In this document: in pieces, positions 3,710 to 57,061 of the stretch | Layout: each line of letters starts with the position of its first letter | How positions within the stretch are numbered: position 1 is the stretch's first letter | Assembly (NCBI GenBank): GCA_964527185.1 | Contig: CAZGOI010000001.1 | Span: 6,010 to 70,009 of the forward strand | Reading direction: 5' to 3' | Origin: an uncultured Candidatus Saccharibacteria bacterium | Lineage (GTDB): Bacteria > Patescibacteriota > Minisyncoccia > Phycocordibacterales > UBA9973 | Length of the DNA stretch: 64,000 bases | Position numbers and translations under genes: made by a program | Notes under the pieces: model-generated | Told to the model about the DNA's origin: nothing | Seen by the model: only the letters and a program-made list of their open reading frames with translations | The model's database searches: none

Positions 3710-3810
3710 TTGACTCCTCCTTTTGTTTTAAATTAGAAAATAACTATCTAGTATTTACAAATTATAAATACACGAGTCTGGCAGAATTATACACCTAAAT
3801 AGACTTTTTG

Positions 3811-4566: not shown

Positions 4567-4570
4567 GGGA

Positions 4571-5260
4571 TTATTTTACCACAATCAACTTCTTTGGTGA
4601 TTTGGTAAGTGGAATGCACCCTGCATCTGTTATATGGCAAGTGTCTTCTATCCTTATGCCCAATTTATTTTTTATATAAATCCCGGGTTCGATTGTAATA
4701 ATCATATTTTCTTTTAGAACTGGGCGAGTCTTTTTATAATATATCCTAGGTGTTTCGTGAATCTTAGTACCGACCCCGTGCCCAAGAGTATGAATAAAGT
4801 TTTTGGAATATTTACCTAAAAAATTTCTAACATATGCATCTAGGCTTGCGCATTTCTCGCCTATATTTGCTATATTTATTGCGCCTTGTTGAGAGGCAAG
4901 TAATTTATTATATAAATCTTTTTCTTTTTTGGTTGGTTTACCTATATAGAGAGTCCGTGTCATATCCGACATGTACTTTTTATATACCACGCCAAAGTCG
5001 ACAATAACAAATCCAGAAAGTTTTTTATCGAGCGGATCAAAAGGGTGAATTTCGTTGCCGGCATGCCTGCCTGAAGTAACGATAGGTTTAAAACTTGGCT
5101 TTAGTTTTCTTTTTTTAATCTCATAGAGAATAGAGTCGCGAAGTTGTCGTTCGCTAATATTCTTGAGATCTTGTTTTAAAATATTTTTAAAAATGGCATC
5201 CGTTGCTTGGCATGCCATTTTTATTTTTTTAATTTCGCTTTTAGTTTTTATCTGGGCCAT
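4571..5260 (-). CDS. M24 family metallopeptidase (methionine aminopeptidase-like pita-bread fold)
   Basis: Metal-ligand pattern D..D (VIVDFG…SDMTRT), HGVGTKIHE, TIEPGIY and IRIEDT; 229 aa. Confidence 0.7.
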   Translation of the reverse strand: MAQIKTKSEIKKIKMACQATDAIFKNILKQDLKNISERQLRDSILYEIKKRKLKPSFKPIVTSGRHAGNEIHPFDPLDKKLSGFVIVDFGVVYKKYMSDMTRTLYIGKPTKKEKDLYNKLLASQQGAINIANIGEKCASLDAYVRNFLGKYSKNFIHTLGHGVGTKIHETPRIYYKKTRPVLKENMIITIEPGIYIKNKLGIRIEDTCHITDAGCIPLTKSPKKLIVVK

Positions 5261-5263
5261 TGA

Positions 5264-5683
5264 TTAGTGCCAAGCACCGAGAATTAATCCGAAAACTGCA
5301 AATGTTAGAAATTGCGCACCAGTAGAAATCCAGAACAATTTCCAAGCCATTTTTTTTGATTTACCACTCCAAAGTGCCGCACCAGCCGTTGTTGTCATCA
5401 CAAACCCAAACCAACTGCATAGAGCAATCGCAATCGCAGGAACACTTTTGTCCCCCCAATTTACTATGTGATAATCTAGAACTCCAGCTGTAATAAGTGA
5501 GAGCACAAATTGCAAAAAATACATTCCGCCCATGCTTTTTTTCATGGCTGCTTTCTGTTCTGGGCTCATCATGTCTGCGCCCATTACCTTCATATAAGCC
5601 TTACCAAAGATTGGCCCATACCACAAAAACCCTACGACCATTGCTGCTATACCACAAACCAAAACCGCAACATAATTAATCAT
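5264..5683 (-). CDS. Small membrane protein, DUF1761-like
   Basis: The WYGPIFGKAYMK motif and 3-4 TM helices. The start was chosen at an internal Met (MINYVAV) because the long ORF would overlap msrB. Confidence 0.5.
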   Translation of the reverse strand: MINYVAVLVCGIAAMVVGFLWYGPIFGKAYMKVMGADMMSPEQKAAMKKSMGGMYFLQFVLSLITAGVLDYHIVNWGDKSVPAIAIALCSWFGFVMTTTAGAALWSGKSKKMAWKLFWISTGAQFLTFAVFGLILGAWH

Positions 5684-5733
5684 AAATTTGTAATAATATT
5701 TATAATTTTTGCAGGGACTGGCTGCAAATATTG

Positions 5734-6114
5734 TCAGCTGCTTTTCTCCAAATCGAGAGCGCAAGAATTCATGCAAAAGCGCTGTCCGGTTGTTTCGCGC
5801 GGACCATCGTTGAATTTGTGGCCCAGGTGCGCGCCGCAGTTTGCACATACAACCTCGGTACGATTCATGCCGTGGCTCGTATCATCTCTAAATAAAACTG
5901 CATTGGGCAAAGACTCATCAAAAGACGGCCAGCCTGTACCAGAATCGAATTTTTTATCCGAAGAAAAAAGTGGGTTGCCGCAGACTTTGCAATTATAGGT
6001 CCCATTTGCTGTCTCTTTATAATACTTGCCAGAAAAAGGAGCTTCAGTTCCCTTTTCTTGGGTCACATGATATTCTTCGGAAGTCAATTTTTTCTTTAAT
6101 TCTTCTTTATCCAT
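5734..6114 (-). CDS. msrB: Peptide-methionine (R)-S-oxide reductase
   Basis: SelR domain with two CxxC pairs (CKVCGNPLF … CANCGAHLGH) and GTGWPSF. Confidence 0.9.
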   Translation of the reverse strand: MDKEELKKKLTSEEYHVTQEKGTEAPFSGKYYKETANGTYNCKVCGNPLFSSDKKFDSGTGWPSFDESLPNAVLFRDDTSHGMNRTEVVCANCGAHLGHKFNDGPRETTGQRFCMNSCALDLEKSS

Positions 6115-7686: not shown

Positions 7687-8934
7687 TTAGGCTTTTGTTA
7701 TATCTCGAGGGAAAAACATATTGACACACCAATCTACAAATATTTTTATTTTCTTTGACGGTGAAATAAATTTAAATAGGTAGACCACTCGCCAGATGAA
7801 CCAAGCAACTGGTCCACGAAAGTTGAATCGACCAAATTGGGCGACTGCATTCCATTTGCCAATCGAAGCCAAGGACCCTTGCGATTTGTACGAGAATGGC
7901 GCCAGGGCCTTGCCGGCAAAAAACCTTTTGATATTGTGGCCAGTCAAGACGCCTTGTTTTTCGGCTACTTGGGCAAGCATTGGCAATGGCTTGCCATCAG
8001 GGCCAGCTAGACTTGCGATATCGCCAATGGCAAAAATATTTGGGCGATCTTTGATTTGAAGTGTGGGGGTAACGACTATTCTACTCCAGTTATCGAGTAA
8101 AACATTTTGTTCGAATTTAATTGCGTTTGGTTTGACCCCAGCTGTCCAAATTACGTGGTTTACTTTTATTGAAGATTCATCTGTAAAAACTATCTCGTCT
8201 TTACGAACTTCTTTAACGCTCATATTCAATATGACTTTGACTCCATTTCGACGCAGAGTATTGAGTGCATTTTTTCGCAGTATTTGATGGAACGGTAAAA
8301 GAATTTCTTTGTCGCGATTTATTAGATATAGCGTTATGTCTTCGCAACTTATGATCCCGTGATAGTACCGCACAAATGTATCACTAAATAGCTCGGCCAT
8401 CTCAGCCACAAGCTCGACCCCGGTCGGGCCACCACCGACAACCGCAAATGTCAGTTCCTTCATTTTTGTGTCGTGGTTTTTCATTTCTGATGCTTTTTCG
8501 AAAGTTTCGATAAAAGATGTTCGCAACCTGATGGCGTCGCGCAAGTCTTTCAAAACAAAAGTGTATTTATCAGCGCCGGGTGCGTTGAAAAAATTTGTCG
8601 TCGCCCCGAGTGCCACGACCAAAACATCATAGTGCAATTCGTCTATTGTTGTTTTGACTGTATGTTTGTCGCAATCGATAGAGACAACATCGGCGACGTG
8701 CAGTTTGTCGTTGCCTTTGTATATTATCTGCCTGATCGACTCGACGACCTGGTGGTGGGCGATCGAACCAGTCGCAACTTCGTGCAGGAGTGGGGTGAAG
8801 AGAAAATAGTTGGTGCGGTTAACGATGGTTACATCTATCTCGTTTTTATTGAAATATTTATAGAGGCTCTTGTATGTATAGAGCCCCCCAAATCCGGCAC
8901 CTAGTATAACTATTTTTTTCTTCTGTTTTATCAT
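7687..8934 (-). CDS. ndh: Type II NADH:quinone oxidoreductase (NDH-2)
   Basis: Two dinucleotide-binding motifs (IVILGAGFGGLY and VVGGGPTGVE), and FAIGDIA. Confidence 0.85.
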   Translation of the reverse strand: MIKQKKKIVILGAGFGGLYTYKSLYKYFNKNEIDVTIVNRTNYFLFTPLLHEVATGSIAHHQVVESIRQIIYKGNDKLHVADVVSIDCDKHTVKTTIDELHYDVLVVALGATTNFFNAPGADKYTFVLKDLRDAIRLRTSFIETFEKASEMKNHDTKMKELTFAVVGGGPTGVELVAEMAELFSDTFVRYYHGIISCEDITLYLINRDKEILLPFHQILRKNALNTLRRNGVKVILNMSVKEVRKDEIVFTDESSIKVNHVIWTAGVKPNAIKFEQNVLLDNWSRIVVTPTLQIKDRPNIFAIGDIASLAGPDGKPLPMLAQVAEKQGVLTGHNIKRFFAGKALAPFSYKSQGSLASIGKWNAVAQFGRFNFRGPVAWFIWRVVYLFKFISPSKKIKIFVDWCVNMFFPRDITKA

Positions 8935-11544: not shown

Positions 11545-11635
11545 CTGGCGGAGGAGAAGAGATTCGAACTCTTGATGCCGTTTCCGACATACATCCTTTC
11601 CAGGGATGCCGATTCAACCACTCTCGCACTCCTCC
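11545..11635 (-). tRNA. tRNA-Ser (anticodon GGA), CCA encoded
   Basis: Reverse complement GGAGGAGTGCGAGAGTGGTTGAATCGGCATCCCTGGAAAGGAT…GAGTTCGAATCTCTTCTCCTCCGCCA. It has a 7-bp acceptor stem, a long variable arm, the T-loop GTTCGAATC, and anticodon loop CT-GGA-AA. Confidence 0.8.
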
Positions 11636-18540: not shown

Positions 18541-18656
18541 TTTGTTCTGGCGACGGCCTACTTTTGCCTAAAAGACTATCATCGGCGTAGATGGGCTTAA
18601 CTTCCGAGTTCGGAATGTGATCGGGTGTGACCCCATTACCAAATCACCAGAACAAA
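18541..18656 (-). rRNA. rrf: 5S ribosomal RNA
   Basis: Reverse complement TTGTTCTGGTGA…GTCACACCCGATCACATTCCGAACTCGGAAGTTAAGCCCATCTACGCCGATGATAGT…TCGCCAGAACAA. This matches the conserved 5S loop C/helix IV sequence, and the terminal stem pairs. Confidence 0.85.
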
Positions 18657-18782
18657 ATATTCAAATATCAGATACACTCGTCCCGAGTAAACTCGAGGGA
18701 TGATATCTGAAAACTGAATGCTAGAACCCGCCTTCGTTAAAACGAATTCGGGCGAACGCAAAAATATGATTTTCTGATTTCC

Positions 18783-22213
<3,431 letters not shown>

Positions 22214-22448
22214 CCTATTAGGAAATCTGAAAACCATCCCGACTCCGTAAAACGGAGGGGGACGACATTTTGCAAAATAGGAACCGCTTCCAAATTTTTG
22301 CACCATGTCTTAAATCATTGCGTTCTGTCTGCAACCCGATAAAAGACCCTAAAAAAATTTAGGATAACAGTGGGTCGCAACAGCATTCAGTTTTCAAATA
22401 TCATGTCGCCCTTCGAATCTCTCAGGACTAGATGTCTCAATAAAAAAA

Positions 22449-22618: not shown

Positions 22619-23305
22619 CTACATTGACATATTGTTTGTGAACTTATCGACTGCGCGTGAGGCTGCCTCTTTGCCACCAAGGCCAAAGGCAAGACCGCAT
22701 GCAATAGCGAGGGCCGCAACCAATCCTGTAAATAGGATCTGCATAAATGCCGAAGCGATACCAAGTTCAGAAAGCGCAATGATGAATGCAAAGACCCAGA
22801 TAGAATATCGGGTCACCGAGCCAAGCATATGTGCCGAGCGAACGTTGGCAGCTTGTGCGGCTGCTTTCACATATTTCTTCATTGTGTCAGATATAACTGT
22901 CGCAATGATAAGAACGAGCGCAGCGATAATAACCTTTGGCAAGTAAAATATCACTGTGTCGTGCAAGAAACCGCTGACATCAGTGAGACCAAGATAGTCG
23001 AGCGATGCCATGAGGAACACAGCAATGATAAACCACTTGACCACCCAACCGATGAATCCACCGACGCTGAGCTTGAGGCCCGCGCGGTTCATAAGATCGG
23101 CTGCGCCTGCACTCTCAAAAAGCTTGTCGAGCTTTAGAGCACCTAGGAGTTGTGCGATTGCTTTACCAATCACAGATCCGACAACCCATCCGACTATAAA
23201 TAGGATGATTGCGAGTAATAGATTAGGGACGAAGTGAATGAATCCTGCCCAAAGGTCCATCAAGGATGCATTGAAAACATCTCCCCAACTTTGTATAAAC
23301 ATCAT
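22619..23305 (-). CDS. Membrane protein with repeated 'conserved TM helix' units (MscS N-terminal-like), no channel domain seen
   Basis: Repeated GxxIGKAIAQLLGALKLDKL-type amphipathic and TM segments. Confidence 0.5.
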   Translation of the reverse strand: MMFIQSWGDVFNASLMDLWAGFIHFVPNLLLAIILFIVGWVVGSVIGKAIAQLLGALKLDKLFESAGAADLMNRAGLKLSVGGFIGWVVKWFIIAVFLMASLDYLGLTDVSGFLHDTVIFYLPKVIIAALVLIIATVISDTMKKYVKAAAQAANVRSAHMLGSVTRYSIWVFAFIIALSELGIASAFMQILFTGLVAALAIACGLAFGLGGKEAASRAVDKFTNNMSM

Positions 23306-23395
23306 AAGATCGTTTAATAAATAAATAATAAGGGTACTTACAAAGCTTCGACCTTTAAAGTACGCTTATATTATAGCAAAAATAGCCCTTAGGGG

Positions 23396-24013
23396 CTATC
23401 GGCTGGCTATGTATGTGGATAACTGGGGATTGTCTAAAAGCTTAAGGTGGGGCAAGTCTATTATGTCGCAGACGAGCTTGTCGTACATATCGAGGCGGTA
23501 TTTAAATTCCTCGGTGTCGAGTACTACGTAGTCGAGCTCCTTGCCTATTTCGGCTTCTAAGCCTTTTATTGTTTGAGCTAGATTGTTTTTCTTCAATCGG
23601 TCCCCAACCAAAAGAAGGTCGGCCCGGCTATTTTGGTCGCCAATGAAAACCCCTGAAACTATCATGAGTTTAACCTTGCCTACTTGCTTAAATTTATCGG
23701 TTAAATTCTCTTTTATAAGGAGGTTGGGGTCGACAAGCAACTCGCGGACCGCCTCGAGGTATTCAAAGTTTTGATTGAGTTGCCAGGCAGAGACTTTCTT
23801 CTTGCCACCGCGCGAGCCTTCTTTGGTGATGCTTTTTGGTTTGATAAAACCTATAGCCGACAGAGCGTTTATCTCTTTGCGAGTATTAGGCTTTGCCACC
23901 CGGCTGCGGCTAGCAACCTCGGCCACCTCAAATGCGCTCGAACTATTGAGTAAAAATAGCCTCATAATTTTCACTTTTGCATGCCCGCCAAGCAGTTTGG
24001 CCAATATTTCCAT
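23396..24013 (-). CDS. Hypothetical protein (Lys-rich; weak winged-helix-like segment, not called a DNA-binding protein)
   Basis: The start was chosen at MEILAKLL so as not to overlap the rplL terminator; otherwise as in the ORF track. Confidence 0.45.
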   Translation of the reverse strand: MEILAKLLGGHAKVKIMRLFLLNSSSAFEVAEVASRSRVAKPNTRKEINALSAIGFIKPKSITKEGSRGGKKKVSAWQLNQNFEYLEAVRELLVDPNLLIKENLTDKFKQVGKVKLMIVSGVFIGDQNSRADLLLVGDRLKKNNLAQTIKGLEAEIGKELDYVVLDTEEFKYRLDMYDKLVCDIIDLPHLKLLDNPQLSTYIASR

Positions 24014-24024
24014 AGCCCCTAGTA

Positions 24025-24082
24025 TACGCCAAGCAAAAACACCCCGCAAGTCCTGTTTGAGACAGGCGAGGGGGTGTTTTTG
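24025..24082 (-). terminator. Rho-independent terminator after rplL
   Basis: On the minus strand: AAAAACACCCCCTCGCC-TGTCTCAAACAGGA-CTTGCGGGGTGTTTTT, a long GC-rich stem followed by a T-run. Confidence 0.65.
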
Positions 24083-24105
24083 GATAGAGAAGTTTATAAA
24101 TTTTT

Positions 24106-24507
24106 TTATTTAAGGGTGACCTTGCCACCGACTTCTTCGATTTTTTTCTTGATCTCTTCAGCTTCTTCTTTCTTGACACCTTGTTTAAGAACCGAAGGAG
24201 CGTTGTCAACTAGGTCTTTGGCTTCTTTGAGGCCAAGCGTTAGAGCTTCTTTGACTATCTTCATGACCGCAATCTTTTGCTCGCCACCAGATGTCAGTTC
24301 AACTGTGAACGAATCTTTTGCTTCAGCACCAGCATCCCCTGCCCCGCCAGCAGCTGGGCCAGCGACGGCGACGGCCGCAGCCGAGACGCCAAATTTTTCT
24401 TCTAATACTTTAACGAGCTCGTGCAAATCAATCACAGACATTTCTTCAATTTTTGAAACTATATCTTTGAATTTTGCAGGAACTTCGACATTTTTTGTTT
24501 CTTCCAT
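24106..24507 (-). CDS. rplL: 50S ribosomal protein L7/L12
   Basis: N-terminal dimerisation helix, an Ala/Gly-rich hinge ([16 protein letters not shown]), and a C-terminal …EVGGKVTLK. Confidence 0.95.
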
Positions 24508-24531
24508 AATCTATTTGTAAATTACTAATAA

Positions 24532-25020
24532 TTACGCTTTGCTTTCTGCAATTGCATTAACAACAACTGCAAATCTTTGGATCGGTGAATTGATGAGGTT
24601 CACAAACATTCCGCGCAAAGTCTGCAGTGGTGGAATTGTTGCGATCGACATCATTTCACTTGCGCCGATATATTTGCCTTCGAATATTCCGCCGATGATT
24701 TCAATATTTTCTTTGTGAGTCTTGGCGAAATTGTTGACTTCGCGGGCTGGGGCAAGCAAATCTTCCCCATACGCCATCGCGAGTTGGCCGGGCAACTCTG
24801 GCAATTCGCCAGAGAATTTGTAGGTTTCTAGGGCACGCTTCAGAAGTGTTTTCTTTGCAACTTTGTAACCGATATTTTCTTTCTGCAAACCTCGGCGAAA
24901 TGAATTCACGTCGGCCACAGTTAGCTTATCGAATTTTACAAAGACGACAGAGTTGGCACCTTTGAGCGATTTCTCTAGGCTGCCCACAAGCTCTTTTTTC
25001 TTTTCTAATGTATTTGCCAT
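24532..25020 (-). CDS. rplJ: 50S ribosomal protein L10
   Basis: 162 aa matching the L10 family pattern, immediately upstream of rplL. Confidence 0.9.
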   Translation of the reverse strand: MANTLEKKKELVGSLEKSLKGANSVVFVKFDKLTVADVNSFRRGLQKENIGYKVAKKTLLKRALETYKFSGELPELPGQLAMAYGEDLLAPAREVNNFAKTHKENIEIIGGIFEGKYIGASEMMSIATIPPLQTLRGMFVNLINSPIQRFAVVVNAIAESKA

Positions 25021-25198
25021 ATTGTTTTTTAAAATTAAAAAGACCCTTTCGGGCCGTCATATCGTAGAACACTCACGTGTGTGAATCTTCGACCTCGGTA
25101 GGGTCTATTTATGTGTCTCTGGCTTGCGCTCGGGTCCTCTGACTCTGAGAGTCTCGGACTCGAATGAGATCACGACCTACTGTCTACGGCTACCCTGC
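25021..25198 (-). promoter_or_regulatory. Structured 5' leader of rplJL (candidate L10 autoregulatory leader)
   Basis: A roughly 180-nt GC-rich untranslated region between the predicted promoter and the rplJ start, containing several stem-forming segments. Confidence 0.35.
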
Positions 25199-25227
25199 CA
25201 TACTAGCAAACTAGCCTAATTTGTCAA
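25199..25227 (-). promoter_or_regulatory. Sigma70-type promoter for rplJL
   Basis: On the minus strand: TTGACA, a 17-nt spacer, then TAGTAT. Confidence 0.45.
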
Positions 25228-25235
25228 ATAAAAAA

Positions 25236-25254
25236 CCTCCCCGAGGGCGGGAGG
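25236..25254 (-). terminator. Rho-independent terminator after CDS 25473..25817
   Basis: Hairpin cctcccgccctcggggagg followed by TTTTTTATTT on the minus strand; it abuts the -35 box of the rplJL promoter. Confidence 0.55.
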
Positions 25255-25472
25255 CTTCTGATATCTAAGAGAGGCCAAAATTAACTATCTTAGTCGAAAG
25301 TTTACAAAATAAAACGGGGTGTGTCAATACTATTGATTCACACTCCCCGTCGGCTGGGCCTCTTGCGTTTTCGAATCACCTTTTAACGAATCCATAAAAA
25401 CTAGTAGAACTAGCCCTATAACTATAACTATACAAAAATCTACTATAACCTTAAATAAATGTTTGTTCATGA

Positions 25473-25817
25473 TTATAATCCTATGCCATTTTTCATAATA
25501 TATACAGAGTATAGAATGAATACGTTAGTAAGTATTAATATAATTGTAATTGCTTTAAGTACATACTTATAATATCTACTACGAAAAGCTAATTTATTTA
25601 AACAATAGAAATTTATCAATAATAAAATTAACTCTATTGTAAGCAGTATTATATAGAAATCTATTTGGTTAGTGAAATTTATAAGACCTATACTTTTTAT
25701 ATGGTTATTATTTTGTAATAAACTATAAATAAAATTTGTTAGTGGGAAGAATATAAATTCTATAGATAGAAATATTATTATTGATATTCTGTATAGTTTT
25801 TTATATATATTACTCAT
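25473..25817 (-). CDS. Small multi-TM membrane protein, paralog A (ends …KNGIGL)
   Basis: 114 aa with about 4 TM helices in an extremely AT-rich region; paralogous to 25841..26188. Confidence 0.5.
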   Translation of the reverse strand: MSNIYKKLYRISIIIFLSIEFIFFPLTNFIYSLLQNNNHIKSIGLINFTNQIDFYIILLTIELILLLINFYCLNKLAFRSRYYKYVLKAITIILILTNVFILYSVYIMKNGIGL

Positions 25818-25840
25818 TTTTTATTTTAATTTTGAATCAT

Positions 25841-26188
25841 TTAGAATCCTATTCCATGACGGAAAGAAAGGCCTACATAAAAAATAAAGGTTAGTAATAT
25901 TATCAATAGAAATAATAAAATTGAGTAGAGATTCTTTAATTTATTCTTATTGAATTTAATATTCAAAATTAAGAGACCTAATACTCCCAACAATTCAACC
26001 ATTACAGCAATAAAAATAAATATTTGGTTATCTGTAAAAAATTGCTGGTTTACAAATTTAGTCATTAAATAATTTAAATCAATCCCAAATAAAAATAAAA
26101 CAAAAGATATAACTGGGGAAAATAGTAATTCAGGAATTAAAAACATCCCTAAAAATATCCATATCCATATTTTCTGGTATTTATTCAT
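25841..26188 (-). CDS. Small multi-TM membrane protein, paralog B (ends …RHGIGF)
   Basis: 115 aa with the same architecture and C-terminal motif as 25473..25817. Confidence 0.5.
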   Translation of the reverse strand: MNKYQKIWIWIFLGMFLIPELLFSPVISFVLFLFGIDLNYLMTKFVNQQFFTDNQIFIFIAVMVELLGVLGLLILNIKFNKNKLKNLYSILLFLLIILLTFIFYVGLSFRHGIGF

Positions 26189-26221
26189 ACTGTTTAATTA
26201 TAACATTAAACAGAGAACTAT

Positions 26222-29098
26222 CTAGTAACCCCAATTAAAATCTCCTTTGTTTGTGGATACCTTCAATAAAACTAGACCATTTAAAATTTTATTTACTTTG
26301 CCAGTTTGGTCTTTCCCTGAAATTGTGGTTTTTAGCCCATCATAAGTTGCTTCAATATTATAGTCTTTTTTATTTTTTAACCTCTGATGTAAACCTTTTA
26401 GCACCTCTTGTTTATCTAACTTCCAATCAAAAATCATATCGTTTCTAGAAATATCAGTAGATACATTATTGTATAGTAGAGATTTTATTTCAGCTTTTAA
26501 TATGTGTTTGCGGTCTTTATCTTTCAGGATAATTTGAGTTGTGTTACCAGCTTCATCTTTCATGCCGATAATATTATCCTGGTCTGATATGATAATATTT
26601 TGTGATCTAGATATATTGTCTATTCCAGAGAAAAATAAATCTTTTGAGTTTTGATCAAAATATATATTGAATTCTGGACTAGTTTTATCTATTGTAAAAC
26701 TCAGTGTTTGTTCTTGTTCATTATTACCAGCATTATCTACAGCAAAGAATTTAATATTATGTAATCCTTCACTAGAAACTGTTATTTGATTTTGATATTC
26801 CAAATAACCATTATCATCTAGATTGAAAAAAATCTTATATACGCCAGATGGTGTAAGTGGTATATCTGCGTTGTCCACTGAAGATAGATTTATATTCACA
26901 TTGCTACTATAAAAATTTGTAGCGCCTGACAACCCAAAAACTTGTACCGATGTTGTAGGAGCCAAATTATCATATAATGCATCGCCTGTTATTGTACTGT
27001 TGGGGTTGAGGGTTATATCTTTTATGCCGTCGCCATCAGTGTCTATATTGAGTGATGGGGTTGAACCATCTACCAGACTGCCTTTCAGATTTGGGTTTAC
27101 TGGTATATTTGTAAATAGACTCGAAGATATTGTGTTACCACTAGATATAGTTTCATCTTTAAGAGTGAAGGTGCCATTGTCTGTTCCCGAAAGATTAATA
27201 TTATAAGTTTGACCACCATCATTTGGAAAATAAATAAACTTATGATCACCAAATATTTCTACATCTGCATTGGGAATATCATTAAATATACTACCGTCAG
27301 ACGCAATACCAGAGTGGTTTCCATCTTGGTCAACAACATCTATAGATAGTGGACTATATATAGATATTGCTTTGCCATTTAACTGACATTTTGAAATATC
27401 TTGAGTTATTTTATTACCATCTACTAATAAAGAACTACCGGATAGTATGTTAACGATTTCTTGCCTCGAGCCATCTGCCGACATAAGTTTTGAATGTTCA
27501 CCTTTTAATGAGTAAAACCTTTTTGATGTATCGATTGGCAAATTATTAGAACTCTCAAAAGGCACTGTTCCATCACCGAGGGTTTCTTTGGGTTCGTTAA
27601 ACGATATTATTTTTTGCCCAAAAACATCTGTTTGTATTTTTTGGACTACTTTACCCATCGTCCATGTTTTACAACCATCTATAGCATATAGATCAACGCC
27701 AGCTGTACGAAGATCAAAATCATCAAAAACTTGTGTATGGAGATTATGAGAGTTATTCAAGGCTTGTGAATTTAATGAATAATCTTGGGTGAGTAAATTA
27801 TTTGTTTGATCAAAATTTAAATCAGTAGTATTTGATGATAGAAATCCCTGGTTTATTATAGACATAAAACTACCTTGGTTCGCATAATATTTTGCAGAAG
27901 GCATCAATTCATAAACCACTGGCAAATTTTGTGCAATTTTTTTCATTTCCGAATCTGCAAGCCAAGGTATGCTAAAATTATCTCCTTGGAGTAAAACTTT
28001 GATTGCCTTTGGAGCCCCCGTGTTTGGCACGCCCACGAAAACAGCCTTATTTATATGATTGTCTGATGGGTGATCAAAAACATATTTTTTCACTAACAAA
28101 CCCCCTGTACTGTGGGCGATAATATCTACTTTATCACTACCTGTTTGTTGTCTTATAGAATCTATTTTAGATTTAAGTAAATCGACATTTCCTTGGCTGA
28201 CGCCATAGCGCCAATCATATGGAAATGTAAATAGATTACTATTTGAATTTCCTTCTTCAATATAACCTTGATTTTTAAATTCGTTAATAAGTGAATCTGT
28301 ATAATCAAATGAGAAAACTGATATAGTTTTTTTTCTTATAACTTCACCTAATTTTAAACTAGAGTCTGAAGGAGTAAGATCGCTTTTAAATTGTAGTGGA
28401 TCCATAAATTGATCTCCTATATCAGATAAATTATGTAATAAATCTAGCCATAATTTATTTCCAGAATTATCCAAAATATCAGTTCCAGTTACACCTGGAA
28501 CAATAAGTATGGGGTTATGTGTACTTTGTGTGCTTATCTCAAACGCTGGAGTGCCATAGCCTATTGGGCTCCCAGTAAAAAAATCTTCAGTAATAAATGA
28601 AGTTGACGAATCCCCCGCCATCGTAAAGTCTGTGCCTTTTGCTGATGCATCAAAAAATACAAAGAAGGCAACATCATATCCAGGTTGGCCAAACTTGTTT
28701 GTAATATTAGTGCCAGTTAAATAATCAAAAACACAATCACTTCCTGCTGGGTTTCCTGTTGAGAAATTACCCATCGATGCATATGACCCATATTCATATT
28801 GAAAATATGCAAGAAACCCGAGTGATGTACAGTCTATACCAGTTGGCATAGGAATTTTTACTTTGTAGTGAGTATTTGAAGAAAGTGTAGTCCAAGAATA
28901 TTGGCCTAGGTTTTTAGGATCATTAACAGAACCTGTATTAATTAGTAGAAATCCTTTTTCAGAATATGTACCAACGGTTGAAAAATTAGTACTTGTGCCA
29001 GTTCTAGATAATATAGTTGCGGCAAGTGATTGATGATAAGAAAATAACAATAAAATAAAACCAAGTATTACTAAAGTTTTTGTGTAGTGTTTTTTCAT
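26222..29098 (-). CDS. Large secreted alpha/beta-hydrolase (lipase/esterase, Bacillus LipA/PGAP1-like) with C-terminal beta-rich (Ig-like) domains
   Basis: Signal peptide MKKHYTKTLVILGFILLLFS. Oxyanion-region HNPILIVPGVTGT, and a nucleophile elbow KVDIIAHSTGGLL (AHSxGG as in LipA). The C-terminal roughly 350 aa are Ig-like and Asn/Ser-rich. Confidence 0.7.
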   Translation of the reverse strand: MKKHYTKTLVILGFILLLFSYHQSLAATILSRTGTSTNFSTVGTYSEKGFLLINTGSVNDPKNLGQYSWTTLSSNTHYKVKIPMPTGIDCTSLGFLAYFQYEYGSYASMGNFSTGNPAGSDCVFDYLTGTNITNKFGQPGYDVAFFVFFDASAKGTDFTMAGDSSTSFITEDFFTGSPIGYGTPAFEISTQSTHNPILIVPGVTGTDILDNSGNKLWLDLLHNLSDIGDQFMDPLQFKSDLTPSDSSLKLGEVIRKKTISVFSFDYTDSLINEFKNQGYIEEGNSNSNLFTFPYDWRYGVSQGNVDLLKSKIDSIRQQTGSDKVDIIAHSTGGLLVKKYVFDHPSDNHINKAVFVGVPNTGAPKAIKVLLQGDNFSIPWLADSEMKKIAQNLPVVYELMPSAKYYANQGSFMSIINQGFLSSNTTDLNFDQTNNLLTQDYSLNSQALNNSHNLHTQVFDDFDLRTAGVDLYAIDGCKTWTMGKVVQKIQTDVFGQKIISFNEPKETLGDGTVPFESSNNLPIDTSKRFYSLKGEHSKLMSADGSRQEIVNILSGSSLLVDGNKITQDISKCQLNGKAISIYSPLSIDVVDQDGNHSGIASDGSIFNDIPNADVEIFGDHKFIYFPNDGGQTYNINLSGTDNGTFTLKDETISSGNTISSSLFTNIPVNPNLKGSLVDGSTPSLNIDTDGDGIKDITLNPNSTITGDALYDNLAPTTSVQVFGLSGATNFYSSNVNINLSSVDNADIPLTPSGVYKIFFNLDDNGYLEYQNQITVSSEGLHNIKFFAVDNAGNNEQEQTLSFTIDKTSPEFNIYFDQNSKDLFFSGIDNISRSQNIIISDQDNIIGMKDEAGNTTQIILKDKDRKHILKAEIKSLLYNNVSTDISRNDMIFDWKLDKQEVLKGLHQRLKNKKDYNIEATYDGLKTTISGKDQTGKVNKILNGLVLLKVSTNKGDFNWGY

Positions 29099-29565
29099 TC
29101 CACTGTCAGAGTATTTACGTTTTGAGCGAATGTGCAATCGATAGTGAAGGTTGTAGGAATTTTTGGAACGCTAACTGTTACGATTTTAAAATCATAGGGA
29201 GCGATGGGATATTTATTGCCGCCTATTGCAATGACTTCTGAATCGGGCGAGCGATTGTCGAGCATGACGGTCGAGCCATTTGCAATAGATAGAGATCGTG
29301 GGTGCGACTGGCAATTATTGTCGAACTGGAGCAGGTTGCCGCTATTTATATATTTGTATACTGCTTCAGTATATGAGGGATTGCTAGAAACTGGAATTCC
29401 AAGGTGGTGGAATGCAGTCTTTGGCTGCTCCATATTTGATGTCGAACTTTGGCCTATATCTAGAGGCTGTTCTACCTTTTTATGCTTCAGAGCAAAGATA
29501 AAAGCCACGACCAAAACAAGGGCAAGGATAGCTGCGCCAATAAGAGTTTTGTTATCGTATTTCAT
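29095..29565 (-). CDS. Membrane-anchored small beta-rich protein, paralog 1
   Basis: N-terminal TM helix. The C-terminal …MLDNRSPDSEVIAIGGNKYPIAPYDFKIVTV… is paralogous to 29659..30114. Confidence 0.5.
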   Translation of the reverse strand: MKYDNKTLIGAAILALVLVVAFIFALKHKKVEQPLDIGQSSTSNMEQPKTAFHHLGIPVSSNPSYTEAVYKYINSGNLLQFDNNCQSHPRSLSIANGSTVMLDNRSPDSEVIAIGGNKYPIAPYDFKIVTVSVPKIPTTFTIDCTFAQNVNTLTVE

Positions 29566-29658
29566 AATGCCGACATATTAGCACTTTTTAGACCTTTGGC
29601 AAGCACAATAAAATCGGCCAGCTGGCCGATTTTATTGTGTAAAATTATGCCACCAATA

Positions 29659-30114
29659 TTATTGAACAGTGATGGTCGCTACGTTTTGTTGCTTGTCGCA
29701 ATCTATCAAGATAGTTTTTGGAGTCGAAGAAACATAGACGTTCACAATTTTGAAATCATATGGCTTGACTGTGTATATCGAACCGACTTTTATGTTACGC
29801 GTATGTGATGAGCGATTGTCGAGCATGATATTTGTATTATTTGTAAAGGTCATGGCCCGTGGACTGACACCACAAGTATTATTGAATTGGAAAATTTTCC
29901 CTTTATAAATTTTTTGCGCGTCGACGTATTTTATAATCTGGGTCGACGGTGTTGTCGAAGAATCAGAAGTAGGGTTTCCTGAAGTAGAGAGAGATTGTGT
30001 GTTTGTTTCGTTTGATGGAGCATTAGCGCTCTGTGAACGTAAGAAATAGTAACCCAAAACAAGAACTATTATAACTGCAACTATGATCCAAAGATTTTTA
30101 TTTTTATTAGGCAT
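29659..30114 (-). CDS. Membrane-anchored small beta-rich protein, paralog 2
   Basis: …IMLDNRSSHTRNIKVGSIYTVKPYDFKIVNV…, with the same architecture as 29095..29565. Confidence 0.5.
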   Translation of the reverse strand: MPNKNKNLWIIVAVIIVLVLGYYFLRSQSANAPSNETNTQSLSTSGNPTSDSSTTPSTQIIKYVDAQKIYKGKIFQFNNTCGVSPRAMTFTNNTNIMLDNRSSHTRNIKVGSIYTVKPYDFKIVNVYVSSTPKTILIDCDKQQNVATITVQ

Positions 30115-30159
30115 GATATTTATTAGTTATTTTTAATACTTATATTATAGCACCAGTCT

Positions 30160-31173
30160 CTAGCTCTGGCTAACATATTTATAAGTCAAGCTCGAAACAT
30201 CTTTTATAAAAGCAGCTAGGTCATCATAGTTTTTGCCTTTAGTCATAACGCATATTAGATATGGGTTGTTTGGCAAATAGACGATGCCACAGTTGTGCAG
30301 TTCTATAGAGTCGATGACTGTGCCTTGGGTGTTGATATGTTCGCCAAATTTTTGAGAGACGATAGTGCCTTGGGGTAGACCAGCCACGATGCCGTCTTTA
30401 AATGTTGCCTTGCTTAGTATAGACAGAGCTTTTTCAGAATATTCGTGCGATAGATATGTTGCATTGTAGAGTATTCTGAAAAATAGTGAGTAGTCGCTGA
30501 CAGATATAGTATAGACAGAATTAATTTCTGGACCTTTAAGACCGAGGTCTAAATAGACTTTATTTAAATATGCATCAGTCATATCTGAGAGCAAAAGATT
30601 CATGGCGCCGTTGTCTGAATCGATGATCATTCGATTGATGAGATCTTCGACTGTATATTTTTTATCAATGACGAGTTTAGTGGCTGTATCAAATGGCTGG
30701 TCGTCTAGGTTTGAAATGTTTGGAGTGTATGTCAGCTCGCTATTTAAAATGGAAGATTCAGTTTCAGCTTCTTTGAAAAATGCCACCATGATAACAACTT
30801 TGAGTAGGCTGGCCGGGGCATATTTATCGTCTCTATTTATAGCAAAGAAACCGACATTGCTTTTGCTGCCATAGTTTACAAAATAAACCGATGCTGCAGA
30901 TATTTTATTTTGACTCTCGTCTTTGTTTATAAGGTCGTTCATATCTTTGCTCAATCCCCCGCTTGTATCTATTGCTAAATCCACTGGCCGATCAAGAGCA
31001 AGGAGTGGGTGAATAAATTTATAATCTGTGTCATTTTCTCTTATAGATTTGCTCGAGACAAACTCAACGCTCTTGTAATGCCGACCTATTGAAAAACCAA
31101 CGAGCAACGATATTATCGTAAGCCCGATTCCCAAGATCATAGTTTTTCTTGTATTTTTTGGGGATTCTCTCAT
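30160..31173 (-). CDS. Class A beta-lactamase-like serine hydrolase (membrane-anchored)
   Basis: SxxK (PASLLK) and SDN (IDSDNGA) motifs, with KFG in place of KTG. N-terminal TM helix. Confidence 0.6.
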   Translation of the reverse strand: MRESPKNTRKTMILGIGLTIISLLVGFSIGRHYKSVEFVSSKSIRENDTDYKFIHPLLALDRPVDLAIDTSGGLSKDMNDLINKDESQNKISAASVYFVNYGSKSNVGFFAINRDDKYAPASLLKVVIMVAFFKEAETESSILNSELTYTPNISNLDDQPFDTATKLVIDKKYTVEDLINRMIIDSDNGAMNLLLSDMTDAYLNKVYLDLGLKGPEINSVYTISVSDYSLFFRILYNATYLSHEYSEKALSILSKATFKDGIVAGLPQGTIVSQKFGEHINTQGTVIDSIELHNCGIVYLPNNPYLICVMTKGKNYDDLAAFIKDVSSLTYKYVSQS

Positions 31174-31281
31174 CTAAAATAATTTTACAATAAAACAAAC
31201 AAAACAAAAACCCCTGACAATATGTCAGGGGTTTTTGGCCGATTTATAGTTTCGACAAACTTTTACACTAACCGAGATCCA

Positions 31282-34200
31282 TTAGTTATGAATACTGTAT
31301 GAATCTGTTGGGTAGTTGTAAAGCAGAGTTTCTGCTTGAGGCGTGTTACCTGTGACACCACCTGCTACGTCGTAGTAGGTTGCACTAGATGAAGCACCGA
31401 GCTTGGTAGAGAGAGATGTTGTATTAACAGCACCACTAACTGTAGCTGCGGTTACATAAATGCGGAATGTCTTAGAGGTACCAGCTGGGATCAAGTAGCC
31501 ACCTGCGTTTGTCTGACCAGAACCACAAGCTGCTGTTGTAGTATCGAAACAGATTACGCCTGTTGCCGAACTACCTGTAGTCACACCGAATGTAGCGTTC
31601 TTGGTAGCGATTGTAGCACCTGATGTGTCCTTAACAACTATGTTGTCAGCAGCTGAAACGATCGTAACAACACCTGTTGATGTAACAGTGATTGGAAGTT
31701 GTCCAACTCTTATGTCACCCTTTGCGTTAGCAGTGACTGTAACTTCAAGAAGTTTGACAGAACCGTTTGCCAATGTGTCTGTTGAACCAGCAAGTGAGTA
31801 AGAAGGCATCGAACCTACGAGAGTCATAGTAATAGCTGAAGAAGGAACTGTAAGACCTGTTAAGGTGCTTGTTGAGTTACCACTTGTGTACTTGACTGTT
31901 GTAAGTGTGATAGCTGACGTTGTAGCTGAAGTGAGACCACTTGTACCTACCTCTGGGTAAGATACATATGCGTCTACGTTTACACCAGAACCACCGTTAG
32001 GAACTGCGATTGAAAGACCAGTCATGTATGCAGTACCAGAAACGAATGGAGCAGATATACCATTTACTTTGATGCTTGTAGCAGTTGTAGAACCACTTAC
32101 TGTGAAGGTAAGTTCAGAAACTGTCGATGGAGCATTTGAAGAAGTAAAGTTGAATGTCATCTTTGAGCCGTCAGTAGAACCACCATTAGCAGCAGCGACA
32201 AGCTGAGCAATTGTAGAACTAGATGTGACAACTGTAGGTGTAGCGACTGTACCAGTCTGGAATGTAATTGTTTGACCAGGAACAGCTGAACTTGTTGTAG
32301 AAACATTACTTGTCACACCGATAGATGTAACAGTGAGTGATGTCTGTACAGTAGCACTAGCTGCAGCAGCAGAACTTGAATCAGCAAAGACATCAATAGT
32401 CTTTGTTGCGCCTGGAGCAATTGTAAAGTCTGATGAGAAGGTATTGTCGGCATTACTTGAAGCAGCTGCTGTAGCAGGCTGTTGAGGTGTGCCGGCGTTA
32501 CCCGAAGTCTCAGAAGTTCTTAGACCAGCAAGATCAGCTGATCCTTGTGGACTAGTAGCTGTGAATGCACCGTAAGCAGTATTTACTTTAAGTGTTGTTA
32601 CGCGAACACTCTCAGAAGTACTCTGGTTTTGCAAAATGTATGAACCGATCTTAACACCTGCAGTGTTAGGAGCAGCATTTTGGTTTATATAACCAGCGTT
32701 CTTACCAATCGCAAGGGTAGCAGACTGCATAGTAAGGATATTACCAGTTGCAGTAGGACCTGTGATTGAAGCGTGTGATGACCAGCCTTCAGCTGTAGCA
32801 GCACCCATGTTTGCAGAAACACTACCAGCAGTATAGTTAGTACCACCAGTTGTGCGTAGATCTGCGCGAACTTCGAGTGTACTATCAGCACCTGCAGGAA
32901 CGATCATCTGTGAGCCAAGACTAAATGTCAAAGCACCAGATGTCCAACCTTGCTGTGATCCAACCTGCGCACCATTGAAGTATAGTGTCACATTTTGAAG
33001 ACCAGAAGCAGCAGGAGTTGTACCTGAGAGAACTGGAGTTATAGGAAGTGAAGTAACCTTTATATCCTCACCGTAGCCATGAAGCTTGAAGCGTGCGATA
33101 GCAACGTTTGAAGCACCAGCAGTAGTATTAGTCATAGTACTGAATGTAGGATCAACTACACCAGTGTATGAACCAGTACCGATACTGATCTGGCCAGCTG
33201 TGTTAGGAATAGTTCCAGAAAATGCAACGTTCACACCGATCTGAGGGTCTGTGACCATCAAGTCAGATGCCATTTGCAATGAAACTGTAAGGTTGTAACT
33301 TGAACCCTTTATAACATCACCACGAACTTCAACTGTGTGAGAACCAGTTGTAAGTGAAAGTGGATTTGCAGTCATGTCGAATGTCAAATAGTTAGAACCA
33401 TTTGTAGTCGTCATCATTGCATTATTTCCAACTTTAACACCATCAACGTAGAGTCCTACATTTTGAAGTGCATCAGAAGGGGCTGATCCAGTGATACGGA
33501 AGTTTGCAGCTTTAAGCCACAAAGAACGTGTATTCACTTGGATAGGAGCACGCCATACTGTGTATGAACTTGTTCCAGCGTTTACTGAAGCAGCTGAAAC
33601 TGTGTTTGAACCACTAACAGAAGCGGTAGCAAGTGATCCAGAGCCTGCAATAAACATATCATTACCCTTAACAGCAACTGTGTTTACAGTTGTGCCAACT
33701 GAGAATGATGAAAGTGTTACATAAATGTCATAAGAAGTTGTTGATGAATAAACATCAGCCTTAACAGCAACAGTTCGTGAACCATTAACTGCGAGACCGA
33801 GGTTATTCATAGTGATAGTACCATTCGTATTGAATGAGTAACCATCTGTCAAACGAGTAACTCCATCATAGAGGTAAACGTTTGTAAGGGTGTTTTGATC
33901 AGACACACCACCACGAGTGAGTGTTACAGAATTAACTGTACCATTACCTGTGAATTTGATGTGCATGAGGTCAGCTGTAGCTTGACCGGCAACTATTGTG
34001 CCAGTGGCAGGATTGTCTGTTGAGAGAGCAGCTGAAACTGGGCCTGATTGTGAACCACCAGAACCTGAACCACTGCCTGATCCTGAACCACCGCTTGCGC
34101 CTGCTGCGTTGAGAGCAGCTATTGTCAACTTGCCAACAATGCCATCAGCCTTACCCGATGAAGGGTGACCTGTTTGGAATACTTTGATTGCAGCTGTAGT

Positions 34201-34407
34201 TTTCTTGCCATAAAGACCGTCTACTACTAGACCAGCATTGTCTAATGCATTCAAAGTTTGCTGTAACCACATAACGTCAGCTTTTGAAGATGACTTTGTG
34301 ATTTTGGTTGCTGTAGTTGCCATCCAATCTGCATGTGCAACACCTGCAAAAGTGAGGACAAAAGCTACGAGCAAACCAGCGATTGTTTTTGAATTAATTT
34401 TTAACAT
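31282..34407 (-). CDS. Giant cell-surface protein: N-terminal peptidoglycan-binding domain, (GS)n linker, roughly 900 aa of Thr/Ser/Gly/Ala-rich beta-repeat region
   Basis: Signal peptide. PG_binding_1-like ADVMWLQQTLNALDNAGLVVDGLYGKKTTAAIKVFQ. A GGSGSGSGSGSGG linker. A long low-complexity T/S/G/A/V-rich repeat region. Confidence 0.7.
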   Translation of the reverse strand: MLKINSKTIAGLLVAFVLTFAGVAHADWMATTATKITKSSSKADVMWLQQTLNALDNAGLVVDGLYGKKTTAAIKVFQTGHPSSGKADGIVGKLTIAALNAAGASGGSGSGSGSGSGGSQSGPVSAALSTDNPATGTIVAGQATADLMHIKFTGNGTVNSVTLTRGGVSDQNTLTNVYLYDGVTRLTDGYSFNTNGTITMNNLGLAVNGSRTVAVKADVYSSTTSYDIYVTLSSFSVGTTVNTVAVKGNDMFIAGSGSLATASVSGSNTVSAASVNAGTSSYTVWRAPIQVNTRSLWLKAANFRITGSAPSDALQNVGLYVDGVKVGNNAMMTTTNGSNYLTFDMTANPLSLTTGSHTVEVRGDVIKGSSYNLTVSLQMASDLMVTDPQIGVNVAFSGTIPNTAGQISIGTGSYTGVVDPTFSTMTNTTAGASNVAIARFKLHGYGEDIKVTSLPITPVLSGTTPAASGLQNVTLYFNGAQVGSQQGWTSGALTFSLGSQMIVPAGADSTLEVRADLRTTGGTNYTAGSVSANMGAATAEGWSSHASITGPTATGNILTMQSATLAIGKNAGYINQNAAPNTAGVKIGSYILQNQSTSESVRVTTLKVNTAYGAFTATSPQGSADLAGLRTSETSGNAGTPQQPATAAASSNADNTFSSDFTIAPGATKTIDVFADSSSAAAASATVQTSLTVTSIGVTSNVSTTSSAVPGQTITFQTGTVATPTVVTSSSTIAQLVAAANGGSTDGSKMTFNFTSSNAPSTVSELTFTVSGSTTATSIKVNGISAPFVSGTAYMTGLSIAVPNGGSGVNVDAYVSYPEVGTSGLTSATTSAITLTTVKYTSGNSTSTLTGLTVPSSAITMTLVGSMPSYSLAGSTDTLANGSVKLLEVTVTANAKGDIRVGQLPITVTSTGVVTIVSAADNIVVKDTSGATIATKNATFGVTTGSSATGVICFDTTTAACGSGQTNAGGYLIPAGTSKTFRIYVTAATVSGAVNTTSLSTKLGASSSATYYDVAGGVTGNTPQAETLLYNYPTDSYSIHN

Positions 34408-57036: not shown

Positions 57037-57061
57037 AAATCCCGATTGATCGGGATTTTTA
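57035..57061. terminator. Bidirectional rho-independent terminator (copy 1 of an identical 27-nt element)
   Basis: aaaaatcccgattgatcgggattttta: a perfect 7-bp stem with A/T runs on both sides, between the convergent rpmB (+) and 57059..57700 (-). Confidence 0.6.

Follow-up and report, generated by a model that had tools for sequence, protein, structure and literature searches.

A candidate mobile cassette upstream of rplJ in a Patescibacterium pairs a predicted secreted LCAT/LPLA2-family hydrolase with a small three-helix membrane protein

In a 64,000-nucleotide stretch of a patescibacterial genome (the window; contig CAZGOI010000001.1, positions 6,010 to 70,009), an AT-rich block encodes one large secreted hydrolase and two very small membrane proteins beside the ribosomal protein genes rplJ and rplL. 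Why are these three genes found together, and how did they come to lie there? A sequence-only reading had proposed a horizontally acquired accessory island with a lipase-like enzyme. We put forward, at roughly even chances, that the block is a horizontally moving two-component cassette, consisting of a secreted phospholipase-type enzyme and a self-protecting partner with three transmembrane (TM) helices, located in an envelope operon upstream of rplJ. The window copy is one instance of this cassette, and its special value is a clean insertion junction beside a conserved ribosomal-protein operon.

Bacteria of the Candidate Phyla Radiation (CPR) do not synthesize lipids and are enriched in lysolipids, and no mechanism of lipid acquisition has been identified for them (PMC7242380, PMC11665869). 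Lipidomics indicated that the lysolipids are taken from other bacteria (PMC7242380). In reviews, the lipid uptake and breakdown mechanisms of the phylum are described as unknown, and a role of phospholipases in damaging host envelopes has been proposed. The secreted LCAT/LPLA2-type subfamily described here is widespread in Patescibacteria, appears to move between genomes and is nearly always accompanied by a 3-TM gene. Lysolipids are products of this enzyme class, which bears on how lipid-dependent bacteria attack or harvest other membranes. The enzyme class itself is unsurprising; what is new is the conserved pairing with an undescribed membrane-protein family. With two clonable genes, two opposed roles of the partner, self-protection and lipid hand-off, become testable.

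The block contains the following genes and hydrolase features:

26222..29137, minus strand: LCAT/LPLA2-family secreted hydrolase (LCAT gene), a 971-aa open reading frame (ORF) from TTG at 29137
29018..29098, minus strand: predicted Sec signal peptide, MKKHYTKTLVILGFILLLFSYHQSLA before and AT after the cleavage site (ORF aa 14-40), read from the sequence
28523..29017, minus strand: variable N-terminal domain (aa 41-205), not conserved among homologues
27428..28522, minus strand: catalytic alpha/beta-hydrolase core with LCAT-type cap (aa 206-570)
28208-28222 (codons): PYDWR (306-310), invariant
28109-28111 (codon): nucleophile Ser343 in AHSTGG, invariant
27572-27574 (codon): Asp522 in GDGTVP, invariant
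27494-27496 (codon): His548, invariant
26225..27385, minus strand: C-terminal all-beta Ig-like beta-sandwich domains (aa 585-971), with strands throughout in the AlphaFold2 (AF2) model
25841..26188, minus strand: tm115, a 115-aa 3-TM protein with the motif MFLIPELLF containing the invariant Glu20, ending in RHGIGF
25473..25817, minus strand: tm114, 114 aa long, 25% identical to its divergent paralogue tm115 and ending in KNGIGL

By sequence and predicted fold, the hydrolase is a member of the LCAT/LPLA2 family. Residues 282-446 matched PF02450 (LCAT) with E 2.1e-20 and 73.8 bits (gathering score 21), and both the Ser-Asp-His triad and the overall predicted fold of the family were present. In an alignment of 20 sequences (42-57% identity), PYDWR, AHSxGG (Ser343), GDGTVP (Asp522), His548 and two cysteines were invariant, namely Cys489 within the core and Cys584 (27386-27388) just beyond it. 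The catalytic motifs HNPILIVPGVTGT and VDIIAHSTGGLL pointed out in the sequence-only reading were found in the hydrolase, and Ser343 is the nucleophile-elbow serine that this reading called for. Its description of the core as LipA-like fitted less well. The best Foldseek match of the AF2 model was LPLA2, the eukaryotic lysosomal phospholipase A2 (4x97; E 2e-12, target TM-score 0.70, 403 columns), followed by eukaryotic LCAT (4x96; TM-score 0.68), both covered along their full length, then by Tle4 (0.42) and by ordinary lipases, and phmmer matched the hydrolase to LPLA2 and LCAT chains. A Bacillus LipA-type enzyme is less probable: Lipase_2 (PF01674) was a marginal match, with 21.8 bits against a cut-off of 20.3 and only profile positions 23-94 of 219 covered, and LipA chains in the PDB matched only residues 293-372 (E approximately 3e-4); in sequence as in fold, LCAT and LPLA2 matched far better. 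The model reached a pLDDT of approximately 70-90 for the core and of 80-95 for the C-terminal part, and residues 1-205 were unmodelled.

With LCAT, LPLA2 (PLA2G15) and PF02450 in general, the hydrolase shares the Pfam match, PYDWR, AHSxGG, GDGTV, the triad and the predicted fold. In contrast to LCAT and LPLA2, to which it is only approximately 17-18% identical, it is bacterial (CPR), approximately 960 aa long and equipped with a variable N-terminal domain, approximately 390 aa of C-terminal Ig-like domains and a dedicated small membrane protein. In addition to being phospholipase A2 (PLA2) enzymes, LCAT and LPLA2 act as transacylases. By analogy with them, the most probable activity of the window enzyme is that of a phospholipase A or transacylase secreted to act on membrane lipids. 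Other relatives of this kind are apicomplexan: TgLCAT and Plasmodium PL are LCAT-family enzymes secreted by obligate parasites onto host-derived membranes. They are eukaryotic, and we know of no dedicated membrane partner for them.

The claim of a 971-aa secreted hydrolase with an Ig-like C-terminus held for the ORF, the predicted signal peptide and the beta-sandwich domains; the start was revised. Translation more probably begins at ATG 29098-29096, which yields a 958-aa protein identical to a database protein (P0001) whose gene call has the same start. The AF2 model contained a helix at 19-33 in the signal-peptide region. Homologue alignments began at approximately aa 196-209, the pLDDT was below 50 at residues 29-205, and homologues carried other N-terminal domains, such as a beta-helix. 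In the C-terminal part, an OmpL47-type beta-barrel domain was matched at aa 758-816 (NF047446, E 3e-16, 59.6 bits; cut-off 40), in addition to a weak match to Big_13 and Foldseek matches to the adhesin-like BIg domains of SiiE. The sequence and the AF2 model contained neither a C-terminal TM helix nor a sortase motif, leaving the hydrolase with no anchor of its own.

A homologue search returned 530 proteins with E <=0.001 among 8000 candidates scored. The 120 homologues listed were 42-59% identical to the hydrolase (P0001, the window's own protein, excepted), and all of them carried PF02450 in precomputed Pfam annotation. Those with a taxon name were all Patescibacteria (Nomura-, Staskawicz- and Doudnabacteria, and Paceibacteria). 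Viral contigs contained only distant LCAT-like fragments (24-35% identity) and gave no sign of a phage-borne cassette.

The two small proteins had been described as tandem 4-TM paralogues of 114 and 115 aa, both ending in GIG[LF]. The ORFs and the C-termini (GIGL in one, GIGF in the other) were as described, and the number of helices was three. The AF2 model of tm115, built from a 65-sequence alignment, had a pLDDT of 90.2 and a pTM of 0.79, with membrane helices at 3-33 (kinked at Pro25), 55-79 and 85-110 and a short helical loop. Paralogy was not apparent with BLASTP (E=17). A profile built without tm114, on the other hand, aligned with residues 1-113 of tm114 at 37.1 bits (E 2e-13), and the tm114 homologues P0126 and P0127 combined features of both copies, bridging the subtypes. 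From these sequence comparisons, tm114 and tm115 are real paralogues whose relationship is visible by profile.

Across the 65 sequences of the TM family, Glu20 was invariant and Gln5, Lys6, Phe16, Pro19, Leu22 and Gly68 were nearly so. TM1 was the most conserved part of the family, with Glu20 in mid-membrane. A word-indexed query with tm115 retrieved four proteins, and a query with the alignment retrieved 134 clusters; the family thus comprises at least 134 clusters of 81-162 aa, found in Patescibacteria only. 'Hypothetical protein' was the only source name in these clusters, with one exception, a 115-aa protein that JGI labels as a glucan phosphoethanolaminetransferase, and a precomputed Pfam domain was missing in all but one cluster. 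No match was found in Pfam, PDB sequences or PDB folds, and PADLOC and NCBIfam yielded no defence-system or named family for the small proteins. An SMR/EmrE-type transporter was considered, in view of the protein size and the glutamate in TM1, and rejected, with three rather than four TM helices, no Multi_Drug_Res (PF00893) match in the 65-sequence alignment and no PDB fold match. By sequence, this is an unannotated and previously undescribed family of small membrane proteins without a Pfam entry.

A small hydrophobic gene recurred directly upstream or downstream of LCAT homologues in otherwise differing genomic contexts. The pairing was surveyed with a profile built from LCAT-adjacent small genes and searched over all fetched loci, with the 34 loci (several of them duplicates) whose LCAT gene is at least 45% identical to that of the window as the denominator. 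A family-A or family-B TM gene was adjacent to LCAT, always on the same strand, in 25 of the 34 loci, and the shorter family-B forms at L068 and L084 raised this to 27. Five of the remaining seven loci ended at a contig edge, and only L066 and L067 truly had no partner. After removal of duplicates, approximately 20 positive loci remained. The spacing between TM gene and LCAT was mostly -43 to +56 bp. In the reverse look-up, all four TM-family genes on long contigs (4/4) abutted a PF02450 gene, and no TM-family gene without an LCAT neighbour was found among 59 rplJ-anchored loci of relatives. LCAT-like genes of other subfamilies (24-30% identity) had no TM-family partner. The suggested link between a lipase and small membrane proteins was thereby extended to a co-oriented gene pair conserved across Patescibacteria. 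On this sequence evidence, LCAT and TM genes form a conserved two-gene arrangement, new in its arrangement and built on a known enzyme family. No paper linking LCAT with the CPR was present in the literature collection searched.

Tandem TM copies were present in the window and at L080, L081, L082 and L106. At L106 (Doudnabacteria; 3669-5354), the LCAT gene was preceded by three TM genes (115, 113 and 117 aa), by a short form of 93 aa and by an ORF for a secreted protein of 76 aa; the N-terminal 25 residues of the three TM copies were almost identical, after which the copies diverged. The two loci without a TM partner, L066 and L067, were flanked by pilin-like genes. Type IV pilus genes beside LCAT occurred at L066 (2388-2891, 6431-7462), L067 (1572-2039), L003 (4782-7928) and L105 (7694-8854) and encoded pilin-like proteins (GFTLIELLVV N-termini), PilB, PilC and PilM.

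What could such a pair do? The enzyme would be secreted through the Sec system as a protein of approximately 930 aa after removal of the signal peptide, with an LCAT/LPLA2-type core and an intact Ser343-Asp522-His548 triad. By analogy with LCAT and LPLA2, it would bind to a membrane surface, probably that of a host or neighbouring cell. It would cleave an acyl chain from a glycerophospholipid via an acyl-Ser343 intermediate. This chain would then go either to water, as in a phospholipase A, or, as in a transacylase, to an acceptor lipid, and extracellular lysolipid and fatty acid would result. The 3-TM protein would reside in the membrane of the producer as the cognate partner of the enzyme and would shield this host-derived membrane from the exported phospholipase in an immunity-like manner. 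Judged by sequence, self-protection is the most likely role of the partner. We favour it because the TM copies are tandem and divergent, because they are strictly co-inherited with a single enzyme subfamily and because the cassette appears mobile; tandem arrays of this kind are typical of immunity genes.

Known systems offer partial parallels. The Tle-Tli pairs of type VI secretion systems (T6SS; e.g. Tle4-Tli4, PDB 4r1d) likewise place a secreted GxSxG phospholipase-like enzyme beside a small cognate gene, with arrays of small-gene paralogues, and are mobile and compositionally odd. Tle4 was the next structural match after LPLA2 and LCAT, but a weak one. Unlike in these pairs, the partner in the window is a polytopic 3-TM protein rather than a soluble periplasmic protein or lipoprotein and may lie upstream or downstream of the enzyme. 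Export also differs from that of T6SS effectors, as the window enzyme has a predicted Sec signal peptide; neither the ORFs of the window nor the gene tables for nine related loci contained T6SS, VgrG or PAAR genes. The immunity proteins of pore-forming colicins and S. aureus TsaI (for TspA) are likewise small multi-TM proteins; their genes lie next to that of a secreted protein that damages membranes and often occur as divergent tandem copies. No sequence or fold similarity between such small membrane immunity proteins and the TM family was detected, and the toxin class differs.

Several observations weigh against self-protection. The partner exposes only a loop of approximately 20 aa and a tail of approximately 6 aa, a poor fit for blocking a 900-aa enzyme, and the invariant intramembrane Glu hints at more than passive binding. 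A partner gene either upstream or downstream of the enzyme gene is unlike most toxin-immunity pairs. The mirror-tree signal between the LCAT core and the TM partner was weak (r=0.17, Mantel p approximately 0.08) and does not separate self-protection from docking or hand-off. Some of these features would suit a lipid-scavenging role, which we regard as possible, though clearly the less probable of the two. The enzyme would strip acyl chains or lysolipids from the host, and the partner would dock the enzyme or receive the products and flip them into the epibiont membrane via intramembrane Glu20 (and Glu/Gln65). The invariant mid-membrane Glu in the most conserved helix, an enzyme without an anchor of its own, the strict co-occurrence of both genes and the tiny exposed surface of the partner are in line with such a hand-off, as are the transacylase activities of LCAT and LPLA2 and the lysolipid-rich membranes of CPR bacteria, which lack both lipid synthesis and a known uptake route. 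Against it, the TM protein resembles no transporter or flippase family, a conduit would require oligomerization of a three-helix protein, divergent copies in tandem are seen more typically in immunity arrays, and a Rosetta-stone search found no fusion of LCAT with a TM-family protein among 12 long homologues. That enzyme and partner jointly constitute the missing lipid-acquisition device of Patescibacteria is a reading we hold to be unlikely; if true, with the enzyme acting as a surface-exposed transacylase, it would account for the lysolipid-rich CPR membranes and also for why the two genes are obligatorily inherited together.

Adjacent co-oriented genes are also found where a secreted enzyme depends on a helper, as in lipA-lif and in holin-dependent secreted enzymes, and a LipA:LipB complex was among the distant lipase matches in Foldseek. 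The small proteins might accordingly be a holin-like release factor or a Lif-like lipase chaperone, which we consider very improbable. The hydrolase has its own predicted Sec signal peptide, and the partner has neither the charged C-terminal tail typical of holins nor a match to a Pfam or PHROG-type family. In Lif/LipB operons, too, the gene of a secreted lipase stands with that of a membrane-anchored partner. Lif, however, has one TM helix and a large helical periplasmic domain of approximately 300 aa that embraces the lipase, while the window partner, of approximately 115 aa, is nearly all intramembrane. A lipase-foldase pair was rejected on these grounds (114-115 aa, three TM helices, no soluble domain).

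The second part of the question, how the preferred cassette of enzyme and self-protecting partner reached its place, was approached through base composition and synteny. The block (25473-29137) had a GC content of 30.4%, compared with 41.0% for the whole window, 44.7% for one flank (22619-25328) and 41.5% for the other (29138-34407). Among all 3665-bp windows, the minimum of 0.303 fell at 25451-29115 (mean 0.411, standard deviation 0.032, z approximately -3.4). The block therefore coincides with the lowest-GC 3.7 kb of the window, and the sliding-window computation excluded uniform GC. Windows of 400 bp below 25% GC started only between 25351 and 25901 in the whole 64 kb, and the edges at approximately 25400 and 29100 were each sharp within 100 bp. 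The flanks, put at approximately 50% GC before, were lower, at approximately 44-45%.

The two TM genes (20.7% GC) and the LCAT gene (32.9%) differed from their neighbours in third-position GC (GC3) as well. GC3 was 0.157 in tm114, 0.241 in tm115 and 0.216 in LCAT, against 0.36-0.53 in neighbouring genes (rplJ 0.47, p46 0.49, p156 0.41, p151 0.36 and the beta-lactamase-like gene 0.39). The drop was restricted to the three block genes, adjoining genes being unaffected. As the second-position GC (GC2) of the LCAT gene was normal (0.356), amino-acid composition is not the cause of its GC deficit. For tm114 and tm115, with a GC2 of only 0.17-0.19, amino-acid composition accounts for part of the deficit. 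Across all genomes examined, the LCAT gene had 31-40% GC; it equalled its flanks in genomes of 33-38% GC and lay below them in genomes of at least 40% GC, including the window. This pattern fits a gene pool centred on low-GC genomes.

The minus strand carries all genes between 22.6 and 34.4 kb, including rplJ, rplL and the block genes. Their order as transcribed, with the elements in between, is PG_binding_1 surface protein, terminator, Beta-lactamase2-family protein, p151, palindrome, p156, LCAT, tm115, tm114, p46, terminator, rplJ promoter, leader, rplJ and rplL. The features around the block are:

34407-31282, minus strand: PG_binding_1 surface protein (Pfam match)
31237-31205, minus strand: terminator after the PG_binding_1 gene
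31173-30160, minus strand: Beta-lactamase2-family protein (Pfam match)
29659-30114, minus strand: p151, paralogue of p156
29604-29639, between p151 and p156: perfect 36-bp palindrome CACAATAAAATCGGCCAG/CTGGCCGATTTTATTGTG, which could be a terminator or an operator
29095-29565, minus strand: p156, left flank, a resident gene for an N-terminally anchored small protein
25329-25469, minus strand: p46, right flank, a tiny resident single-TM gene (MNKHLFKV...)
25252-25239, minus strand: operon terminator hairpin, from pattern scan and sequence
25227 (TTGACA) to 25200 (end of TAGTAT), minus strand: rplJ promoter, from pattern scan and sequence

The GC break had been placed at the rplJL terminator. 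With all genes on the minus strand, the block instead lies 5' of the rplJ promoter and leader, and the hairpin at 25252-25239, read from the sequence, ends the transcription unit that contains the cassette, after p46. An Rfam scan of 18.4-25.5 kb gave no L10-leader or intron family. The operon neighbours, the PG_binding_1 surface protein and the Beta-lactamase2-family protein, are envelope-directed. p156 and p151 each have an N-terminal TM helix and are 43% identical over the C-terminal 90 aa (E 6e-24); they matched no Pfam family, and PADLOC and NCBIfam gave no defence-system or named family for them. p46 was gene-called on the Logan contig and matched no named family.

Both flanking genes appear to be resident at this site. 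Homologues of p156/p151 were found upstream of rplJ in L006, L031, L034 and L035, the p156 homologues also upstream of p46. With tblastn, p46 homologues were detected 150-350 bp upstream of rplJ in approximately 20 relatives across Paceibacteria (consensus MxNKHxFKVxxxFxGxIxxGLIxLVxIDS; L006 copy at 4739-4939). The relatives were the 59 rplJ loci, taken from GTDB representative genomes, to which the window genome does not belong (Paceibacteria by title; best rplJ identity 76%). They keep rplJ-rplL-p217-MscS-like downstream and are variable on the upstream side. In the closest relative, L006, the p156 homologue was followed by the p46 homologue after 52 bp, and in L031 approximately 430 bp separated p156 from p46, which was followed by rplJ. 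In the window, the three AT-rich genes lie exactly between p156 and p46. Most relatives with a 67-76% identical rplJ had no such LCAT gene within up to 10 kb upstream. Among the 43 relatives with at least 2.5 kb of sequence upstream of rplJ, 42 were without this type of cassette and one, L006, carried it. There it follows three unrelated ORFs in the interval from p46 to rplJ, and the TM gene comes before LCAT. Because junction and gene order differ from those of the window, the L006 cassette is, on sequence grounds, a second, independent insertion.

Taken with the GC3 drop in the three genes only, these comparisons support an insertion of the block between the resident genes p156 and p46, in keeping with the horizontal acquisition first suggested and with a block not conserved at the same position across relatives. 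Distant homologues had unrelated surroundings, and in some cases recombinase, Prim-Pol or IS200 genes lay next to them. Near the LCAT cassette of L005 (10954-17181) there were genes for a PDDEXK nuclease, a serine recombinase and Prim-Pol, and near that of L003 (11758-12429) one for an IS200-type Y1 transposase. A lower-GC Patescibacterium may have been the source from which the lineage of the window recently received the cassette. Transformation and recombination are the probable route, given the lack of integrase, tRNA or repeats at its ends.

Other results weigh against such a recent arrival. The AT-richness is partly intrinsic, the small TM genes having 22-30% GC in every genome examined. 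Integration is tight: the ATG of LCAT overlaps the TGA stop of p156 as ATGA (a direct reading of the sequence), and at the right junction p46 starts only 2 nt after the tm114 stop, the ribosome-binding site of p46 being supplied by the last codons of tm114, which is unexpected for a very recent arrival. Genomic-island features were found in part, with compositional deviation and an indel junction present. No integrase, tRNA or meaningful flanking repeat was found at the block and no recombinase between 22 and 35 kb, the only tRNA in the window being at 11546-11635. The nearest homologue of the hydrolase is only 56-57% identical. Finally, a second LCAT-like subfamily, with beta-helix repeats and an LCAT domain and 24-26% identical to the window enzyme, lies directly upstream of rplJ in L017, L051, L052, L054, L055, L056 and L059. 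The following genes of this subfamily were located:

L017, 2133-5657
L051, 6969-9827
L052, 6998-9844
L055, 6606-9722
L056, 7026-9833
L059, 6522-8471

After the LCAT gene of L017 and of L059, a different small polytopic membrane gene follows (5654-6076 and 8472-8873, respectively), and the two are homologous to each other. The recurrence of distant LCAT-like genes upstream of rplJ suggests that the neighbourhood itself attracts or retains such enzymes. The label 'accessory' thus stands for the insertion, with the caveat that distantly related LCAT-like genes occupy the same neighbourhood in several more distant relatives.

The same recurrence would be expected if an LCAT-like gene beside rplJ were ancestral, its absences reflected repeated loss and the AT-richness were a property of the genes themselves, through amino-acid composition, low expression or local mutation bias. 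Besides L006 and the seven loci of the distant subfamily, the translational coupling of the cassette to resident genes, the missing mobility signatures, the AT-rich TM genes everywhere and the 31-40% GC of LCAT in all genomes examined speak for this history. We give it a low probability. The other subfamily has a beta-helix N-terminus and is far less similar to the window enzyme than the members of the window's own subfamily, which remain 45-60% identical across distant CPR classes, and the cassette of L006 was inserted at another point than that of the window and has the opposite gene order. Moreover, a GC3 of 0.22 with normal GC2 is not explained by the composition of the LCAT protein, and the gene matches its flanks at 33-38% GC and deviates only in higher-GC genomes.

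Elsewhere in the window, the 23S rRNA (18545-22220, minus strand), followed by 5S, spans 3440 nt compared with a 2925-nt model, approximately 500 nt extra; neither an intron family nor an ORF of at least 110 aa was detected in this region. The gene upstream of the 23S-5S pair encodes an MscS-like protein, and 16S is not immediately upstream. AT-rich accessory genes are dispersed across the source genome. Two AT-rich orphan genes on the minus strand, at 57059-57700 and 52234-52944, had GC3 values of 0.21 and 0.26, respectively, and no Pfam match. A second strongly AT-rich gene (1248-2177, minus strand; GC3 0.21) encodes a 309-aa reverse transcriptase (RVT_1, E 3e-26). It is probably mobile, and its size suggests a diversity-generating retroelement or retron type.

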